The position numbers and the translations under genes were made by a program. Positions 4,959 through 12,873 of a DNA stretch of 19,450 nt are shown here, one piece after another. The stretch lies in the UHGV virus genome UHGV-1270568; one strand, written 5' to 3'. Each line of letters starts with the position of its first letter. Position 1 is the first letter of the stretch. Source of the DNA: a virus. The notes beneath the pieces are model-generated. The model made no database searches. It was given only the letters and a program-made list of their open reading frames with translations, and was not told the origin of the DNA.

Positions 4959-6710
4959 ATGATTCAGGACGCTTTTGTGCGCCAGCGTGCGCGGCAACTT
5001 TACTGGCAGGGTTATCCGCCCGCAGAAATATCACGTCTGATGGGAATAAACCCGAACACGATTTATGCGTGGAAAAAACGCGACCAGTGGGATGAAACGC
5101 CACCCGTGCAGCGTGTCACGCAGTCCATCGATGCGCGCCTCATCCAGCTTACTGAAAAACAGAATAAAACAGGCGGTGACTTTAAGGAAATAGACCTGCT
5201 GACCCGGCAGCTTAAAAAAATGCATGATGGCCAGCCGGATGCGACGGCCACAGGAAAGAAAGGTCGGGCGAAAAAACTCAAAAATCATTTCACGCCGGAA
5301 CAGATTGCCGCACTGCGGGAAAAAATCATCAGCAGGCTGGAGTGGCATCAGCGGGGCTGGTTTGACTCCCTGACCCTTTGCAGGGAAGCCGGGATACGTA
5401 ACAGGATGATCCTGAAATCCCGACAGATTGGCGCGACCTGGTATTTTGCACAGGAAGCACTGCTGATGGCGCTGCGTGACGATGTGGCGCAACCTTACCA
5501 GCGTAACCAGATTTTTTTGTCTGCGTCGCGTCGTCAGGCGTTCCAGTTTAAAAGCATTATTCAGAAGGCCGCGGCTGAAGTTGATGTGGAGCTGAAAGGG
5601 GGCGATAAAATCATCCTCTCCAACGGCGCAGAGCTGCATTTTCTCGGCACTTCTGCTGCGTCGGCGCAGTCCTATACGGGCAATTTTTATTTTGATGAAT
5701 TTTTCTGGGTCAGTCGCTTTGCTGAACTGCGCAAGGTGGCTGGCGCTATGGCAACCCTCAGCGGATTGCGGCGCACCTACTTCTCCACGCCATCCACCGA
5801 AACGCACGAAGCATACGCCTACTGGAACGGCGACCGCTGGAACGAGAAAAAGGCCACGCATAAACGCCAGCGTTTTTCTGTGGACTGGAAAACGCTGCAT
5901 AACGGGCTTATCTGCCCTGACCGGACGTGGCGGCAAATTGTCACGCTGGAAGATGTGGTTAATCACGGCTGGAAACACACCGATATCGACGAAATTCGTG
6001 ATGAAAACACCGAAGACGAGTTCCTCAATCTCTATATGTGTGAGTTTGTCCGCGAAGGGGAATCGGCATTTAACCTGAATATCCTGATTGGCTGCGGTGT
6101 TGACGGATACGACGACTGGAAAGACTGGAAACCTTTTGCTCCCCGCCCGATGGGGAATCGTCCGGTATGGATTGGGTATGACGCAAACGGCAGCAGTGGC
6201 AACGGCGACAGCGGCGCTGTATCCGTGGTGGTTCCTCCGGCTGTTCCTGGTGGCCGTTTTCGAACGGTGGAGACGCGACGCGTTCAGGGGCTGGAGTTTG
6301 AAGAACAGGCCAGAGTCATTGAAGAGTTCACGTGTCGCTACAACGTGGAACACATCGGCATTGATGTGACGGGCGGGAACGGGGAGGCTGTTTATCAGAT
6401 AGTGAAACGGTTTTTCCCTGCCGCTATTCCGTACACCTTCACGCTGTCATCAAAACGGTCGCTGGTACTGAAAATGCTGCAAATAATGCGTGCCGGGCGG
6501 TGGGAATACGATCGCGCCGAACGCGAGCTGGTCGCGGCCTTTAACGCCGTGCGTAAGGTGAAAACACCGGGCGGCTTTATCACTTACGAAACGGACCGTG
6601 CGAGGGGGATCAGCCACGGCGACCTTGCGTGGGCAACCATGCTTGCTGTCATTAACGAACCGATTGGCGGCGAAGGAGAAAACGAGCGTTTCACGGTTAT
6701 GGAGTTCTGA
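4959..6710 (+). CDS. P: Terminase large (ATPase) subunit, P2 gpP-like
   Basis: 583 aa; GGGGAG RBS; N-terminal RQLYWQGY...ISRLMGINPNTIYAWKKRDQWDE resembles the gpP N-terminus; stop overlaps the Q start (TGATG). Confidence 0.9.
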   Translation: MIQDAFVRQRARQLYWQGYPPAEISRLMGINPNTIYAWKKRDQWDETPPVQRVTQSIDARLIQLTEKQNKTGGDFKEIDLLTRQLKKMHDGQPDATATGKKGRAKKLKNHFTPEQIAALREKIISRLEWHQRGWFDSLTLCREAGIRNRMILKSRQIGATWYFAQEALLMALRDDVAQPYQRNQIFLSASRRQAFQFKSIIQKAAAEVDVELKGGDKIILSNGAELHFLGTSAASAQSYTGNFYFDEFFWVSRFAELRKVAGAMATLSGLRRTYFSTPSTETHEAYAYWNGDRWNEKKATHKRQRFSVDWKTLHNGLICPDRTWRQIVTLEDVVNHGWKHTDIDEIRDENTEDEFLNLYMCEFVREGESAFNLNILIGCGVDGYDDWKDWKPFAPRPMGNRPVWIGYDANGSSGNGDSGAVSVVVPPAVPGGRFRTVETRRVQGLEFEEQARVIEEFTCRYNVEHIGIDVTGGNGEAVYQIVKRFFPAAIPYTFTLSSKRSLVLKMLQIMRAGRWEYDRAERELVAAFNAVRKVKTPGGFITYETDRARGISHGDLAWATMLAVINEPIGGEGENERFTVMEF

Positions 6711-8180: not shown

Positions 8181-8208
8181 TTGTGCAAATTTGTGCACTT
8201 TTGTGCAA
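8181..8208. repeat. Three direct repeats TTGTGCA(A/C) at exact 10-bp spacing (8181, 8191, 8201); a fourth copy at 8109..8116
   Basis: Read directly; helical-phase periodicity suggests a protein-binding array in the cos-proximal region. Confidence 0.6.
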
Positions 8209-8233
8209 ACAAAAAGCGCCCCTGAGGCGCTTT
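8201..8233 (-). terminator. Minus-strand Rho-independent terminator closing the A / cargo operon
   Basis: 8-bp stem AAAGCGCC / GGCGCTTT with loop CCTGA at 8213..8233; on the minus strand it is followed by TTTTGTTTG. Confidence 0.55.
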
Positions 8234-8267: not shown

Positions 8268-8531
8268 TTATCCTGCTGTGCTTTCAACTGATGAGGGGAA
8301 CAAAATCTTTTCATCAAACCCTGCATTCATATCATGGACAGCAACACACCAATCCATTGACGAACGATTATCAAGAGCCTCCATGATTTCATCCATGCGG
8401 CGTAGGTCATACAGGTAAATGCTTTTATCGCCAATGGTGTAAAAACCAATTTTTTTCGGTGATGGACAGCGATCAAGAACGTCCTGTAATTCGTTCAACC
8501 ATGCCCGTTCTTTTTTTGTCAAAGTTGCCAT
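8268..8531 (-). CDS. Hypothetical 87-aa protein, third gene of the cargo cassette
   Basis: MATLTKKERAWLNELQDVLDRCPSPKKIGFYTIGDK...; AAGGAGAG RBS lies inside the 17-bp linker repeat; single-nucleotide gap to the upstream stop. No family recognised. Confidence 0.6.
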   Translation of the reverse strand: MATLTKKERAWLNELQDVLDRCPSPKKIGFYTIGDKSIYLYDLRRMDEIMEALDNRSSMDWCVAVHDMNAGFDEKILFPSSVESTAG

Positions 8532-8532
8532 A

Positions 8533-9024
8533 TCACTCTCCTTTGATGCGAATACCAGTGGTACTCATTATCCTGATTTCCCAGAGCACACGAGGAACAC
8601 CACCGTTTCCGACTGGATCGCGTTTACTCCGCAGGGCGACGCTTGATTCCGCCCAGCTTTTTCTTGGAGGAAGCGCTTTCACACGAACAAAACCAGCTGC
8701 GCGAAGAGATGCTCCTGATTCATCTGCCCGGGTGTACGTAATACAACGTTGATAACCCATAGCTTTTGCTGCCCGCCAGACAGCACCATAAAGCGCGCTG
8801 TTAGCGTTGCGTTCTCCTGTGGTACATGTGCGATTTACTTCAAGCGTTAATCCATCATCCAAATGTCGTGCAACAGGTCGACCGGCTGTCGCCACACCTA
8901 TCAATTCTCCGGCATCATTTCTCAGACCAATGCTGAATTTATGCCCCACCGGGGGTTTATTGTGTCGGTGATGTCTGGATATAAACGCCTTCGCAACACG
9001 AAGAGTAACCGGTGAAATTTGCAT
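8533..9024 (-). CDS. Hypothetical 163-aa protein, possibly GNAT-like fold; second gene of the cargo cassette
   Basis: Track ORF 8533..9063; preferred start is ATG 9024 (MQISPVTLRV...) with AAGGAGAG RBS. The segment ...NANSALYGAVWRAAKAMGY... and the C-terminal ...SGASLRAAGFVRV... loosely resemble GNAT motifs; this assignment is weak. Ends ...IRIKGE encoded by the linker repeat. Confidence 0.55.
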   Translation of the reverse strand: MQISPVTLRVAKAFISRHHRHNKPPVGHKFSIGLRNDAGELIGVATAGRPVARHLDDGLTLEVNRTCTTGERNANSALYGAVWRAAKAMGYQRCITYTRADESGASLRAAGFVRVKALPPRKSWAESSVALRSKRDPVGNGGVPRVLWEIRIMSTTGIRIKGE

Positions 9025-9026
9025 TC

Positions 9027-9602
9027 TCACTCTCCTTTGATGCCAATGTTTACAGACTGGCAAGCCTCTTTGAGCACCCAGTCAACAGCGTCTTTCCATG
9101 CTCCGGTTTCGACTGGCGGATTCTCACGCTTTACCTGTTCATAGAAACGCACCGCTCTAACCAGTCCATCTGACGGTTTTGCCTGTAGTGCAGCCTGAGC
9201 TATGCGGTATGCCTGGAGCATACGGGCGTCGTTGGCTTTTTTGCGGTTGATGTTGGCTATGTCCGGCTGTGCGTTTGTGTCGAAATACTCGCTCAGTGGC
9301 AGGGTGACAACCACATCCACCTCCTGTGGCGTGATGCCTGATTTGACCAGCGCGTGATGAATGGCAATGACATTCACATCGCTGTACTGGTATTGCGTGT
9401 CAGTCGTCTGGACAAAGCGATCGCTGACCGGATCAAAACCATAGCGCACGCCATCAAGCATGTAGTTCGCGGGCTGCGTGCCACCGAACGGCGCAGACCA
9501 TTCCGACTTGAAGCTGTTCGGGCTGATGGCGTTGCGGCGTTCGCCGTTCTCAGTCCATGCCAGCTTGGTGTTGGTGGAGCCGTCATCGATACAAATTTTC
9601 AT
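9027..9602 (-). CDS. Chimeric protein: N-terminal 120-odd aa ParM/StbA-like (actin-fold ATPase N-terminus) fused to an unrelated 68-aa C-terminus
   Basis: MKICIDDGSTNTKLAW...ISPNSFK.EW...YSDVNV.A.HHAL..SG....EVD.V.T.PL......N.QP...NI.RKKAN tracks the N-terminus of plasmid R1 ParM as I remember it (phosphate-1 motif DDGSTN), then diverges. No ParM C-terminal half in any frame. AAGGAA RBS. Ends ...NIGIKGE from the linker repeat. Confidence 0.6.
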   Translation of the reverse strand: MKICIDDGSTNTKLAWTENGERRNAISPNSFKSEWSAPFGGTQPANYMLDGVRYGFDPVSDRFVQTTDTQYQYSDVNVIAIHHALVKSGITPQEVDVVVTLPLSEYFDTNAQPDIANINRKKANDARMLQAYRIAQAALQAKPSDGLVRAVRFYEQVKRENPPVETGAWKDAVDWVLKEACQSVNIGIKGE

Positions 9603-9636
9603 GTCGCTTTTCCTTATGTTGATTAATTAATCGTTT

Positions 9637-9656
9637 ACGGGATTCTGAAATCCCGT
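9637..9656. repeat. Palindrome ACGGGAT-N6-ATCCCGT, copy 1, between the A stop and the first cargo gene
   Basis: ACGGGATTCTGAAATCCCGT followed on the plus strand by TTTTGCC. Confidence 0.6.
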
Positions 9657-9678
9657 TTTTGCCTGTTTTATGCGCGCT

Positions 9679-12501
9679 TCATATATCGCGGCGCGTTTTT
9701 TGCTCATTTACGGGATTTGTGAATCCCGTTTCTGTCTGTTTTTTGTTTCCACTGGTCAGGCCACCCCGCAGCAGGTCTGCTTTGCGGCGGGCGCGTTCAG
9801 TGGTTTCACTGATTCTCTGTGCGTGCTCTGCGTCGCGGATGGCGCGCAGCATGTCAGAAAGCACGGTAACGGGTGTTTTCATGGTGTTCTGGTCTTGCTG
9901 AAGTGTGGATGCCAGGCGTGCGGCGGCTTCGGGGTCTGATGCCCTCAGCTGTTCCAGATAGCTGGCGACCGGGTTATGGCGGATCTCCGTACTGCTTACG
10001 CCGTGGTTACGGCTCAGGCGCTGCCAGAGCTGCGTGATCCGGCTGTCCGGTCGGGTATCCGGTTTGCGTACAATTTCAAATCCCTGCGGTGCAATGATGC
10101 TGCCGTCAACGTACAGACTGCCGCCCCGTAACAGGTGCTGCATCTGCTGTTCACCGATATGCAGGCCGAGAGATTCGGCAGATTCCCGCCATTCTTTAGC
10201 GAGTAATTCGTGGTTATCAGGCAAAGGCCGCTGCTGTTTGCGGCTCTGTGTCCAGCTCTGCATTTCATCACTGCTGTTTTTTGCCTGTTTGTCACGAAGC
10301 GAACGCATCAGCGCCCGGCGTTCGTGCCGTTTCAGTGAGCGCATCCATTCGTTCACGTCAACGCCGTCAGGAAGCTGCGGCCACGGTGCTGGCCGTTCTT
10401 CCGGCTGTTCTGTCCCGTTGTTGTCCGTTTCCTGTACACGGGGACAGTTATTGCCACGAGTCCAAGGGGCGGCAGGGCCGCCCTGAAGGTCAAAACCATT
10501 TTCGCGGGCGCTGTCTTCCGTTTCCGGTTTACGTCTTACCAGTTTCCAGTTATCCGGATGCGTGCACACACGGGAGGATTCCCCGATGAGTGGTGACCAG
10601 ATCCCGTAAATCTGTACGCTCTGTTCGCCGTAATCATTCAGCTCATCTGCGAGGTCGTAGGCGGTGCGAATCAGGTAGTCTTTGCGTGGAACAAGTACGC
10701 CGCCCTGTTTTTCAATGTAGGTGGCAAAACACCCGGCATCGGCGGCAGCGAGTACCGCATCCATTGCGTCATCTTTCAGTCGTTGCGGGCCTTCCGGGTT
10801 GCGTGCCATCTGGCTGGCAAGGCGGCGCAGTTCACGCCACACCTGACGGGAGGGGATGCCAAAGAACTGGAACTGGCGGACCCGATGAAGGCGCGCCCAG
10901 CCGATGGCGCGCTCCACACTCTCGGCCATTGATTTTCCGGTTTCGTGGTCAACGCGTGGCTTGCCCGTTTTCGGGTCGATGCCATCCACGGCGCGGCTGT
11001 CCAGGTTCTTTCCGATGTAGGTCGCGATATAGCTGGTTGGTGTGCCTTTTGAGCCGTCGACATACTCCGCCTTAAAGCGCGGAGTAATATCATTGCCCAG
11101 CTCGTGGCGGTCTTCCTGAATGGCAATATCGCGGGTGATGGCCACGATGCTGTCGATTTCTTCCGGATGAGCAAAGACCATCATATGCCAGTGCACGGTG
11201 CCGTCATGGTGAGGCTCCACCGTGCGGATGCCATACCAGCGAAGACCGTCGCGGTTCAGTTTTTTGCGGACCGCCGCAAAAAACGTGTTAACCAGGTAAT
11301 CGCTGGAGTCGCGCATGGTGGCCCCGTTCCATTTGGGATTCGGATGACCGTTCTCTGTTGTGGCGTGGTATTTTGACGGGCAGGTGACAGTCAGAAACAC
11401 CGCTTTGTCGCCACGGGCTTCGGCCAGAAGTTCCAGCCCCTTCATGGTGGCCATCATTTCTGCCTTACGGTGAACCGGGTTACTTACTCCCGCGTAATAC
11501 ACTGTCTCGAGATCAATCGTGAACCCGTCTTCGTTTTCCAGCATGAAACTTTTCAGGAAATCGCGTGTTTTCTCGCGCTGTGCGCGAAACTCGCTTAACG
11601 CGTCCTGGCTCAGATAGGGTGATGTTTTTCTGGAAACCAGACAGGCGGCGCGGAGTTGTTCTTCTCTCCACTCGCAACGTAACAGCCACAGTTTGCGTTT
11701 CCACCATTCCGCACAGGTCAGGCGAAGGACTGCGCCCGGCAGCAGCTCCGTGTCCGGTTCGTTCCTCCGGTCTTTATCTGTTGTCAGTGCGTCATAATGT
11801 GGAGGCATGATGTGCAGGTGTAACGCCATGCGGGCCAGCATCTGATACGCCTTCAGCGTTACATCCATGGTCAGCTCGCCATCTCTGGCACCAAAGCCAT
11901 CACAGAGTTTTTCGAAGGTGCTGCTGAACATCGCCGCCGTCATGGTGGCCAGCGACTGTATCTGGTGTTTGTTGAGCTGCGGCAGGTAAAGCAAATCGTC
12001 CAGGCGTTCGCGTCCGGCAAGGGAGCGATAACCCGGTGTCAGCCAGTGTCCGTCAGTGCGATCCAGACGTTCGAATATTTTGCGCAGGGTTCCGCGTGCA
12101 TAGCGTTCCGCCTGCCAGCTCTTTTTGCCTTTCCGGCGATCGGCTTCCTGTTTTTTGCGCAGGAAGGAGAGGTGGCGAATAAGCGGATCGCGCAGATAGG
12201 ACGGCAGCAGGCGCAGCGAGGCCATGGCTTCATCCACCGCGCCACGTGCCTGTTTTCTGGCTTCTCTGGCCAGTGTGATGGTTTTGTCCTGTTTTTCCTG
12301 TGCGTCCAGGCTTTTATTAATCAGGTTGCCCAGCGGCGTGGCGGAGAACGCCGCATCAGCCATTTCCTGGCGGCGCTCGTTCTCTGCCCGGTAGGCATCC
12401 AGCCAGGAGGAAAGCTCGGATTCAGGAGCGGGGATTCCCGTTCCTTCACGACCCACTGCGTGGCGCGGTTGTTGCCAGTCCCTGATGTACTCTGCCGTCA
12501 T
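9679..12501 (-). CDS. A: Rolling-circle replication initiation endonuclease, P2 gpA-like
   Basis: 940 aa; HUH-type motif TVHWHMMVFA (about residue 437) and paired-tyrosine motif TSYIATYIGK (Y491/Y495), matching the P2 gpA active site arrangement as I recall it; sits downstream of the early operon. Confidence 0.85.
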   Translation of the reverse strand: MTAEYIRDWQQPRHAVGREGTGIPAPESELSSWLDAYRAENERRQEMADAAFSATPLGNLINKSLDAQEKQDKTITLAREARKQARGAVDEAMASLRLLPSYLRDPLIRHLSFLRKKQEADRRKGKKSWQAERYARGTLRKIFERLDRTDGHWLTPGYRSLAGRERLDDLLYLPQLNKHQIQSLATMTAAMFSSTFEKLCDGFGARDGELTMDVTLKAYQMLARMALHLHIMPPHYDALTTDKDRRNEPDTELLPGAVLRLTCAEWWKRKLWLLRCEWREEQLRAACLVSRKTSPYLSQDALSEFRAQREKTRDFLKSFMLENEDGFTIDLETVYYAGVSNPVHRKAEMMATMKGLELLAEARGDKAVFLTVTCPSKYHATTENGHPNPKWNGATMRDSSDYLVNTFFAAVRKKLNRDGLRWYGIRTVEPHHDGTVHWHMMVFAHPEEIDSIVAITRDIAIQEDRHELGNDITPRFKAEYVDGSKGTPTSYIATYIGKNLDSRAVDGIDPKTGKPRVDHETGKSMAESVERAIGWARLHRVRQFQFFGIPSRQVWRELRRLASQMARNPEGPQRLKDDAMDAVLAAADAGCFATYIEKQGGVLVPRKDYLIRTAYDLADELNDYGEQSVQIYGIWSPLIGESSRVCTHPDNWKLVRRKPETEDSARENGFDLQGGPAAPWTRGNNCPRVQETDNNGTEQPEERPAPWPQLPDGVDVNEWMRSLKRHERRALMRSLRDKQAKNSSDEMQSWTQSRKQQRPLPDNHELLAKEWRESAESLGLHIGEQQMQHLLRGGSLYVDGSIIAPQGFEIVRKPDTRPDSRITQLWQRLSRNHGVSSTEIRHNPVASYLEQLRASDPEAAARLASTLQQDQNTMKTPVTVLSDMLRAIRDAEHAQRISETTERARRKADLLRGGLTSGNKKQTETGFTNPVNEQKTRRDI
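9710..9729. repeat. Palindrome ACGGGAT-N6-ATCCCGT, copy 2, inside the last about 15 codons of A
   Basis: ACGGGATTTGTGAATCCCGT, followed on the plus strand by a T-rich run; a third GC hairpin plus T6 lies between the two copies (9672..9701). Confidence 0.6.
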
Positions 12502-12507
12502 AGTGAT

Positions 12508-12873
12508 TTACTTCGTCATGCCATTCAGGGTGTCGCGGCAGACTGTAGCCAGCCGCTGAATTTCCAGCACGGTGTCTTCTGTGTCGGCATGGCGATGTGT
12601 GATGCGGATGCTGTCGGCAATCACATCGACGATTGCAGAGGATGGGCGCTGGTAAATGCCAATAACGGACGGGGTGCCACCTTCAATGCGGTAAAGCCTG
12701 TAATTTTCCTCATGGCTGTCAATCATGTAGCGACCATCAATAACAATCTTTCCGTCAGCGAGCTGCGGTACAGGCAGGGATTTCAGGTACATGTCATAAC
12801 GATCACGCACGCGAGCGGCAAGATCACGTTCTGTGTTGAGCAGGTATTCAAGAAAGTCGTTGGCGAGAATCAT
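12508..12873 (-). CDS. Hypothetical 121-aa early protein immediately upstream of A
   Basis: Strong AAGAGGA RBS 8 nt before ATG 12873; stop 6 nt before the A start; no family recognised. Confidence 0.6.
   Translation of the reverse strand: MILANDFLEYLLNTERDLAARVRDRYDMYLKSLPVPQLADGKIVIDGRYMIDSHEENYRLYRIEGGTPSVIGIYQRPSSAIVDVIADSIRITHRHADTEDTVLEIQRLATVCRDTLNGMTK

Follow-up and report, generated by a model that had tools for sequence, protein, structure and literature searches.

The question raised by this locus is why two consecutive genes encoding unrelated proteins should end in the same 17 bp. The DNA analyzed here, UHGV virus genome UHGV-1270568, is 19,450 nucleotides (nt) long, and this whole stretch is referred to below as the window. 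On its minus strand, the 17-mer GCATCAAAGGAGAGTGA closes a fusion open reading frame (ORF) and also the next gene, a member of the XF1762 family, and in each case it supplies the Shine-Dalgarno (SD) sequence of the gene that follows. We consider it likely that a conserved boundary, or linker, of the early-left region of lambdoid phages has the 17-mer as its core, and that this linker acts in two ways: it is a coupling junction of stop, SD, and start, and it offers a short stretch of identity for gene swaps.

Two exact minus-strand copies of the 17-mer were found in the window, at 8533–8549 and 9027–9043, which are 494 bp apart, and a scan of the window at up to three mismatches returned no further copies. 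An earlier reading made from the letters alone (the sequence-only reading) had placed the copies at 8534–8550 and 9027–9043; the second position was correct, and the first was one base off. That reading had also described the 17-mer as the IKGE codons and stop of one gene plus the SD of the next, with the ATG 1–2 nt on, and both junctions agreed with it. Copy 1 (the one in the fusion ORF) is followed by GA and then by the XF1762-gene ATG at 9024, which starts 2 nt past the stop; copy 2 is followed by T and then by the ATG of an 87-aa gene at 8531, 1 nt past the stop. The SD sequence AAGGAG lies within each linker copy, 6–7 nt upstream of each ATG. The copy 1 junction was identical in two related prophage loci (L121 and L123, described below) and in many IMG/VR loci. 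Similarity between the copies extends past the 17-mer (ATTnGCATCAAAGGAGAGTGAnATG), and the direct-repeat search gave 36 nt of 83% identity at a spacing of 494 as the top direct-repeat family of the window. Around copy 2, the repeat arm also covers ATT on the 5′ side of the 17-mer and, on its 3′ side, nATG with the first codons. Neither the window sequence nor the repeat search revealed an inverted repeat or att-like symmetry at or near the linker.

The two proteins sharing the C-terminal IKGE were unrelated by profile and fold matches, as had been proposed: one is a fusion of a ParM N-domain with an Ea22-like C-terminus and the other a Mom-like GNAT protein. The fusion ORF (9027–9602) matched StbA_N over residues 1–130 (E 4.5e-64), and its last ~54 residues (138–191) matched phrog_26213/660/250, a C-terminal module that sits on Ead-like N-termini in other loci. 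The Pfam search returned StbA_N alone for this ORF, and the Ead/Ea22 core (PF13935) was not detected in it. This indicated that the fusion carries the Ea22 tail and C-terminal module without the family core. Nor does it encode a complete ParM/StbA ATPase, because the 3′ half of parM and parR are deleted in comparison with L121–L123. The XF1762 product (ORF 8533–9024) scored 202.9 bits against NF045478 (cut-off 50), with residues 3–136 on positions 2–130 of the 143-position profile, and matched phrog_1384 'Mom-like' (E 2e-41). Against Pfam Mom (PF25680) it reached 22.0 bits, which is under the gathering cut-off of 27.1, and the protein is therefore called Mom-like here and not Mom; the PF25680 hit is precomputed for many of its close relatives. 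The AlphaFold (AF2) model, based on 54 homologues, had a predicted local distance difference test (pLDDT) score of 84.7, and its best PDB match in Foldseek was phage Mu Mom (8bv8_B; TMq 0.71, 11% identity). A search by sequence found no solved structure for the XF1762 or the 87-aa protein.

The linker is common to hundreds of phages of E. coli, Shigella, and Salmonella. The exact 17-mer was present in at least 120 IMG/VR contigs, and a 31-mer version in 328 of 50,697 sequenced phage records, which were mostly Stx-converting and other lambdoid phages, lambda, HK630, and P22-like Salmonella phages, with a few others such as SJ46. Plasmids, which the sequence-only reading had named as a place to look, carry it as well: 268 were found, mostly 80–100 kb in size and non-mobilizable, with the linker under ead/Ea22-like genes. 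Within enterobacterial phages, the 17-mer is thus neither absent from related elements nor present at chance frequency. A wide taxonomic spread was ruled out. In one-genome-per-species bacterial data there were 113 matches to the 17-mer, ~37 of which, in unrelated taxa, lie in DNA that is 99.5–100% lambda (contamination); the remainder are close to the chance expectation (596e9 × 2 / 4^17 = 69), and genuine-looking matches were seen only in Escherichia, Shimwellia, and Phytobacter. The ~37 contaminated contigs (L308, L333, L337, L340, L349, L365, L377, and ~30 more) match lambda 29.2–31.1 kb, and their taxa include Streptococcus equinus, Prevotella pallens, Streptomyces, Bradyrhizobium, Piscirickettsia, Shewanella, Pseudomonas, and others.

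Two IMG/VR contigs hold the 17-mer in an unusual setting. In L017 (8479–8495), a holin-family protein (PF05105) ends ...EEPKHGIKGE-stop with the exact 17-mer, without the GGCATTC left arm and in another gene context; this copy may be due to chance or to independent capture. In L023 (2980–2996), the 17-mer is out of frame after ...LIEQDPLVTIDIIT, which looks like an internal deletion in the lambda-type ea22 C-terminal domain, from ACGCATC (codons T-H-R) to the CGCATC of the linker.

The linker has its home in the exo-xis (ea22) region, both in lambdoid and in P22-like phages, and forms the 3′ end of ea22-type genes there (...AGIRIKGE-stop). In lambda (NC_001416; locus L416, 29200–31100), ea22 ends gctggcattcGCATCAAAGGAGAGTGA, and the linker lies at about 29847–29873. 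In the P22-like phage Kapi1, the gene order is cIII-kil-...-RecT-...-Ead/Ea22-like-XF1762-...-xis-att. In lambda (the ea22 3′ end), Kapi1, and the Stx phages alike, the linker thus lies in the early or metabolic domain. The sequence-only reading had directed the search to other P2-like prophage hotspots, and these were not upheld as its home: in P88-like prophages the linker was found only inside an imported lambdoid segment. A general feature of P2-like hotspots was ruled out in the same way, since the habitat of the linker is the lambdoid exo-xis region.

Evidence for a boundary comes from the genes on its two sides. A set of 171 distinct junctions with full flanks (17-mer with at most one mismatch) was assembled from all loci taken from public phage DNA. 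Upstream, their flanks formed 23 sequence clusters and downstream 34, joined in 82 combinations; the cluster numbers are approximate because single-linkage clustering of the upstream flanks merges some Ea22 variants via their coiled-coil core. At least two downstream partners were held in common by 29 pairs of upstream clusters (four-combination pairs). The linker at the 3′ end of XF1762 joins 12 downstream clusters and the start of XF1762 has nine upstream clusters, and the 87-aa gene follows six different upstream clusters. The expectation that different cargo genes would be bounded by the 17-mer was thus confirmed. With many unrelated genes on either side, the linker appears to mark a boundary at which phages swap cassettes.

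The junctions were also uniform in their construction. An upstream ORF of at least 50 aa runs in frame into the linker at 165 of the 171, and an ATG or GTG opening an ORF of at least 40 aa lies 1–2 nt past the stop at 163. Identity across contexts ends at a median of 5 nt to the left of the 17-mer (GGCATTC; sometimes up to CGCGCCGCTGGCATTC) and of 4 nt to the right (nATG), and the block in common is therefore ~26–35 bp, with a full consensus of about GCTGGCATTCGCATCAAAGGAGAGTGAnATG. There is a weak right arm in addition, as many downstream genes start M-x-T-[ILF]-T-K-x-E. The tail is borne by Ead_Ea22 proteins that differ in their C-terminal domains, by HNH_3+AP2 and XF1762 proteins, and by several families without a Pfam model. 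In locus L113, the ea22 5′ boundary sequence and the 3′ linker enclose the HNH gene, which indicated that the body of ea22 had been replaced and both boundaries retained. This HNH_3+AP2 gene (minus strand) fills the ea22 slot, behind the 5′ boundary and a short remnant of the ea22 5′ end, and ends ...NHGVAGIRIKGE-stop; insertion of a free-standing homing endonuclease into ea22 may account for it.

Two roles would be combined in such a block. For expression, the SD of the next gene lies inside the last codons of the preceding gene (K-G-E = AAA-GGA-GAG), followed by TGA and by a start 1–2 nt on. This geometry is that of translational coupling, which suggests that the genes are coupled. For evolution, one and the same ~26–35 bp block separates a large number of unrelated genes in phages and prophages that meet by co-infection, and a crossover in it would leave two intact, correctly expressed genes. 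As an identity patch at a gene-safe crossover place, it would make the genes between two linkers behave as exchangeable cassettes. Crossovers within the linker, which we infer from the mosaic pattern, could be carried out by RecA or by phage annealing of the Red/RecT/Erf type on short homology; Red-mediated recombination of diverged sequences is on record (PMC2327257).

The window itself is a P88-like (Xuanwuvirus, P2-like) prophage of E. coli, and the cassette lies in its variable region between gpA (+ parM) and cos/portal. The segment formed by the Ea22-like C-fragment, linker, XF1762, linker, and 87-aa gene is lambdoid and was imported into this prophage. Three related prophages were informative. 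The O104:H4 strain C227-11 (L122) has the order gpA-parM-parR-143aa-linker-87aa; strain N31 (L121) has the same order plus XF1762 and a second linker; and DA33135 (L123) has gpA-parM-parR-ClpX-type zinc finger-104aa-linker-XF1762-linker-87aa. L123 and the window are essentially identical from 9234 downward. The arrangement in the window arose from an L123-like one via an in-frame deletion of ~1.4 kb, which took the 3′ half of parM, parR, the ClpX-type zinc-finger gene, and the 5′ part of the 104-aa gene. In the alignment with L123, parM codon ~124 is joined in frame to the final 67 codons of the 104-aa gene. This truncated parM fusion was present in only two or three complete E. coli genomes (H1, H2, and possibly H12).

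L121 and L122 differ by exactly 494 bp, that is, by XF1762 and one linker copy, and are otherwise collinear. At the L122 junction, the left flank is that of copy 1 and the right flank that of copy 2, which is the hybrid expected from exchange at the repeat. In the map of single-nucleotide polymorphisms (SNPs), 760 nt are identical, followed by seven differences in the 62 nt before linker 1 and seven in ~130 nt after linker 2. A simple repeat-repeat deletion as the origin of the O104:H4 allele was weakened by this map, in which the SNPs point to replacement of a patch by crossovers in flanking genes. The presence/absence allele thus seems to have moved as a patch, and the exact 494-bp difference would belong to an older history.

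Several observations weigh against a boundary that is used for exchange. The SNP clusters of L121 and L122 lie beyond long identical stretches, so that the crossovers map to homologous genes on the flanks and outside the 17-mer. The standardized module boundary proposed in the sequence-only reading therefore stands as far as the mosaic of 23 by 34 clusters is concerned and does not extend to the only recent exchange that was mapped. No crossover was observed, and mosaic patterns cannot separate homologous exchange over ~30 bp from illegitimate joins filtered by selection. A block of ~30 bp approaches the minimum length for efficient recombination by RecA or Red, a short-homology limit that reportedly goes back to Shen and Huang in 1986 and to Yu et al. 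in 2000. Most of the loci were found via the 17-mer itself, which is an ascertainment bias. Sampled via the 87-aa gene, the full linker (at most one mismatch) was present at 27 of 79 upstream junctions; another 27 share only AAAGGAGAGTGAT (...KGE-stop) and 26 only TGAT, and the breakpoints upstream of this gene are scattered, at −25, −13, and −4. Such partial sharing suggests that the boundary is a zone and not a fixed site. In lambda, the linker is followed by GATCGG with no start codon, and ea8.5 starts ~190 nt on with its own SD; SD function or coupling alone therefore does not account for the conservation there. Relatives of lambda have TATGAGCAGGAATACGGGTTTGTAAAAG where lambda has GATCGG, so lambda seems to have lost the downstream start.

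A rival explanation is that the block is an expression signal only. It would then be a good coupling junction and not a substrate of recombination, and the boundaries would be products of random illegitimate recombination, from which selection retains joins at gene ends alone; this is the Hendrix model, which has been summarized together with the boundary-sequence model (PMC3233612). We consider this unlikely, though it keeps some weight. It agrees with the SD spacing of 6–7 nt and the stop 1–2 nt from the start at 163 of 171 junctions, with the purine-rich GGAG/GAGG/GGGG core that diverged lineages retain while the rest of the linker drifts, with the scatter of breakpoints before the 87-aa gene, and with the L121/L122 exchange that bypassed the linker. 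However, an SD needs ~5–6 nt, yet ~28 nt (GGCATTC + 17-mer + nATG) are near-invariant, synonymous positions included. Independent illegitimate joins should vary in sequence and spacer and not repeat one block in 82 combinations, and lambda retains the block without a downstream start. In addition, the two XF1762 junctions co-vary within lineages. In three diverged lineages (loci L290, L295, and L296), one lineage-specific variant recurs at the junction preceding XF1762 and in the tail that follows, with 16–22 nt shared. This concerted pattern would imply ongoing exchange or conversion between copies, or else a lineage-specific constraint. In L295, GCCGCTGGCATCAAGGTGGAGG stands at both ends of XF1762.

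A bolder view extends the exchange boundary to a whole homology-based cassette system composed of the linker and sister boundaries. An unbiased k-mer scan for promiscuous junctions was semi-quantitative, as SNPs in context words inflate its counts, and it is used as a lead only. A sister boundary, CGCAAAGGAGGCAACCAGTGAGC, is located at the 5′ start of ea22-type genes; the upstream genes end ...RKGGNQ-stop, the GTG start overlaps the TGA stop, and at least eight upstream contexts were seen (e.g., L113, ~800–835 of the analyzed segment). The intragenic block CCGGTAACTCCGGATGGTTGGATAAGCTGTAGTGAGCGAATGCC, encoding PVTPDGWISCSERMP, behaves similarly, and we take it to be the start of DUF551 domains. 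Single promoter-less genes, all closed by the same block of coding sequence plus ribosome-binding site, would be cut out, taken up, and shuffled by the single-strand-annealing recombinases Red-beta, RecT, or Erf, which are encoded a few genes upstream in the same operon, and gene conversion would keep the block uniform in each phage lineage. The outcome would be an integron-like array without an integrase, through which accessory genes could move among lambdoid and P22-like phages, P1-like phage-plasmids, and P2-like prophages. A system as complete as this is distinctly unlikely.

The peptide itself offers another explanation, and here the history of the XF1762 tail matters. The tail is a graft from Ea22-type genes, in which it is native. 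The comparison covered 120 close relatives out of 5,183 homologues, most of which are 150–155 aa long and end ...VLWEIRA, ...RRGL, or ...RRMK. The core ends ...VLWEIRR plus 0–3 residues in most of them and ...VLWEIRI (residue 151) in the window, and the longer tails are lineage-specific. In IMG/VR, forms of 153/154 aa overlap the next gene at ATGA and have no 3′ linker, and a form of 163 aa ends ...EIRRM-STTGIRIKGE-stop. In the structural model, the last strand spans residues 145–151, the pLDDT is <50 at residues 155–161, and the tail is predicted to be disordered. By taking on the Ea22 tail, XF1762 became flanked by direct repeats, and it is present or absent as a unit. Some native ends among the relatives P0058, P0064, P0088, P0109, and P0115 (...VLWEIRAAG(NY), ...EIRRAA, and ...EIRCAG) resemble the left arm of the Ea22 tail (...IRAAGI...); they may have given homology for the grafting or hint at an older relationship.

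The codons of the tail were examined in a scan for IRIKGE-stop with any codons. Exactly ATTCGCATCAAAGGAGAGTGA was used at 106 of 119 homologous ends, and the other 13 differ by one synonymous base; four further matches were unrelated. The cognate tails of distant phages (AAGIKEESE, AAGIKVEAE, AAGIGVKGE, and AGVNVEFE, each before the stop) all retain a purine-rich GGAG/GAGG core 6–10 nt upstream of the next start. All Ea22 variants were reported to end K/R-G-E ('+GE') despite unrelated C-terminal domains, and the authors described the significance of this tripeptide as unknown (Dydecka et al., 2020; PMC7093339). Our comparison offers an explanation at the DNA level for this formerly unexplained ending: it is the SD of the next gene, A[AG][AG]-GGA-GA[AG], read in frame.

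If the protein motif were what is conserved, ...AAGIRIKGE would be a functional C-terminal peptide of Ea22-type proteins, for example one for interaction or stability, the identity of the DNA would be a by-product, and the tails of XF1762 and HNH would be there only through in-frame recombination that chanced to take them along. We regard this as decidedly improbable. The pattern A-A-G-I/V-x-I/V-x-G/E-E-stop does persist in diverged phages with other nucleotides (the first three cognate tails above), K/R-G-E ends every Ea22 variant (PMC7093339), and lambda retains the tail without a downstream gene. However, the tail occurs on at least three unrelated folds, is disordered by prediction on XF1762, and is missing from most XF1762 relatives. 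The C-terminal domains of Ea22 are mosaic and unrelated, and the tail is their sole commonality (Goddard et al.; PMC10834534). The nuclear magnetic resonance (NMR) data of that study for lambda show an ordered part of 64 residues, with no continuation of helix alpha-2 seen past the domain, which fits a tail outside the Ea22 fold. Finally, a peptide constraint would permit synonymous drift, and the codons are nearly fixed.

An actively targeted site, recognized by a nuclease or site-specific recombinase (for instance an HNH homing endonuclease) that would direct double-strand breaks or strand exchange to it, is most improbable. The HNH_3+AP2 gene of L113, ending in the linker tail within the ea22 slot, and the position of the Kapi1 linker a few genes downstream of phage recombinase genes would suit it, but the linker lacks an inverted repeat or att-like symmetry, HNH occurs in only one of 23 upstream clusters, the breakpoints scatter, and no integrase or cassette machinery is consistently adjacent. 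An integron-type cassette was also rejected, as there is no attC-like inverted repeat and the genes next to the cassette in the window (gpA, parM′, and those for portal and terminase) do not include an integrase. A transposon target-site duplication was rejected because the 494-bp unit encodes the GNAT protein only and no mobility gene, has no terminal inverted repeats, and is bounded by a repeat that bounds many genes. A local accident, in which the repeat would be due to chance or to a duplication private to this prophage, has virtually no probability. In its favor, one of 200 shuffles of the window reached two matches to the 17-mer (at most three mismatches; 0.07 expected), and the frequency of the 17-mer is near chance in one-genome-per-species bacteria once lambda contamination is removed. 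Against it, the 17-mer holds the same stop/start position in hundreds of phages and plasmids, where its neighbors differ, and the scans of the IMG/VR, phage, and plasmid collections ruled this explanation out.

Within the library searched, there was no paper with IRIKGE, the DNA 15-mer, or 'XF1762', and no description of this junction was found. The general concept is old. The modular theory is reportedly due to Susskind and Botstein and to Botstein, and Clark et al. are said to have treated lambdoid boundary sequences in 2001 with phage HK620 (J Mol Biol 311:657). Like the lambdoid boundary sequences, the linker is a short conserved sequence at a gene boundary of the early region, with unrelated flanks and a proposed role as a recombination focus; it does lie at a gene boundary, and its non-homologous flanks occur in reticulate combinations. 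Unlike them, it is situated within coding sequence, is found on non-Ea22 proteins, forms a direct repeat round a single gene, and has spread to P2-like prophages and phage-plasmids.

Other known arrangements resemble it in part. The '+GE' of Ea22 is the same feature at the protein level (PMC7093339), whereas the DNA view gives an SD inside a longer conserved junction. Coupled stop/start junctions (ATGA, TGATG) of bacterial and phage operons are built alike, with an SD embedded in the end of the upstream ORF and a stop 1–2 nt from the start, but ordinary ones are specific to a gene pair, whereas this near-invariant block of ~28 nt is reused among dozens of gene pairs. Integron cassettes (attC/attI, IntI) are also single promoter-less genes bounded by a recurring sequence and gained or lost as operon units. 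In contrast to these, the linker comes without an integrase, a hairpin-forming inverted repeat, or evidence of circular cassettes; its repeat consists of coding sequence plus a ribosome-binding site, and homologous recombination, whether general or of the phage, presumably brings about the exchange. P2 carries cargo (tin/old) between gene A and cos, and hotspots of P2-like prophages were reportedly described by Rousset et al. in 2022. The present cassette lies in the corresponding variable region, between gpA (+ parM) and cos/portal, but its cargo is a lambdoid exo-xis piece without a PADLOC match, and the linker is no general feature of such hotspots. PADLOC gave no match for the fusion ORF, the XF1762 protein, or the 87-aa protein, and a reading of the cargo as a defense system was dropped.

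The features of the locus are collected in Table 1. The gpA-type replication gene (Phage_GPA) is located at 9679–12501. No promoter-like site was found inside the cassette on the minus strand; together with the terminator after the 87-aa gene, this indicated that the cassette genes form the 3′ end of the gpA operon.

Table 1. Positions of the linker copies, genes, and associated features in the window.
Feature	Position	Strand	Description
Linker copy 1	9027..9043	-	Last codons (G)IKGE and TGA of ORF 9027-9602 (...NIGIKGE-stop)
Linker copy 2	8533..8549	-	Last codons (R)IKGE and TGA of XF1762 gene (...TGIRIKGE-stop)
Extended repeat arm round copy 1	9012..9047	-	36 nt; pairs with 8518-8553
Extended repeat arm round copy 2	8518..8553	-	36 nt; 83% identical to 9012-9047
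Cassette unit, 494 bp (XF1762 gene and one linker copy)	8533..9026	-	Absent precisely from L122
XF1762-family gene, 163 aa	8533..9024	-	Predicted GNAT fold nearest phage Mu Mom
Grafted Ea22-type tail of XF1762 protein	8533..8568	-	MSTTGIRIKGE and stop; ~10 residues
Fusion ORF, 191 aa	9027..9602	-	ParM N-domain (residues 1 to ~124) and 67-aa Ea22-neighborhood C-terminus (...AVDWVLKEACQSVNIGIKGE)
Deletion joint	9226..9234	-	~1.4 kb lost in comparison with L123, at CAAC microhomology
87-aa gene, phrog_1714	8268..8531	-	Among the commonest lambdoid-phage genes 3′ of the linker
Intrinsic-terminator-like hairpin and T-run	8213..8233	-	Closes the gpA-parM′-XF1762-87aa transcription unit

Since the modular theory was put forward, two sources of phage mosaicism have been disputed: homologous exchange at short conserved linkers, and illegitimate joins made at random and then filtered by selection. 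The junction described here is an unusually clean and abundant test case for the two. Lambda itself carries the linker, so that classical crosses and recombineering genetics can be applied to it directly. The locus also documents a lambdoid exo-xis segment with a Mom-like GNAT enzyme in the cargo region of a P2-like prophage, to which it was transferred. For studies of structure and function, it carries a warning that the last ~7–10 residues of proteins in this region may be encoded by the junction and have no part in protein function.

Two further sets of repeats were noted near the cassette. Two direct repeats of 42 nt, 81% identical and 73 nt apart, are located at 9631–9672 and 9704–9745, at the gpA 3′ end upstream of parM. 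Each holds the hairpin ACGGGATTnnnGAAATCCCGT and could be a parC-like centromere for ParMR or a regulatory element; similar GATCCTGAAATCCC words occur at 5406–5421 and 12777–12792. On the plus strand at 8181–8210, between the cassette terminator and the cos/portal side, three close TTGTGCA(A/C) repeats (ttgtgcaaatttgtgcacttttgtgcaaac) form the small palindrome GTGCAAATTTGTGCAC.

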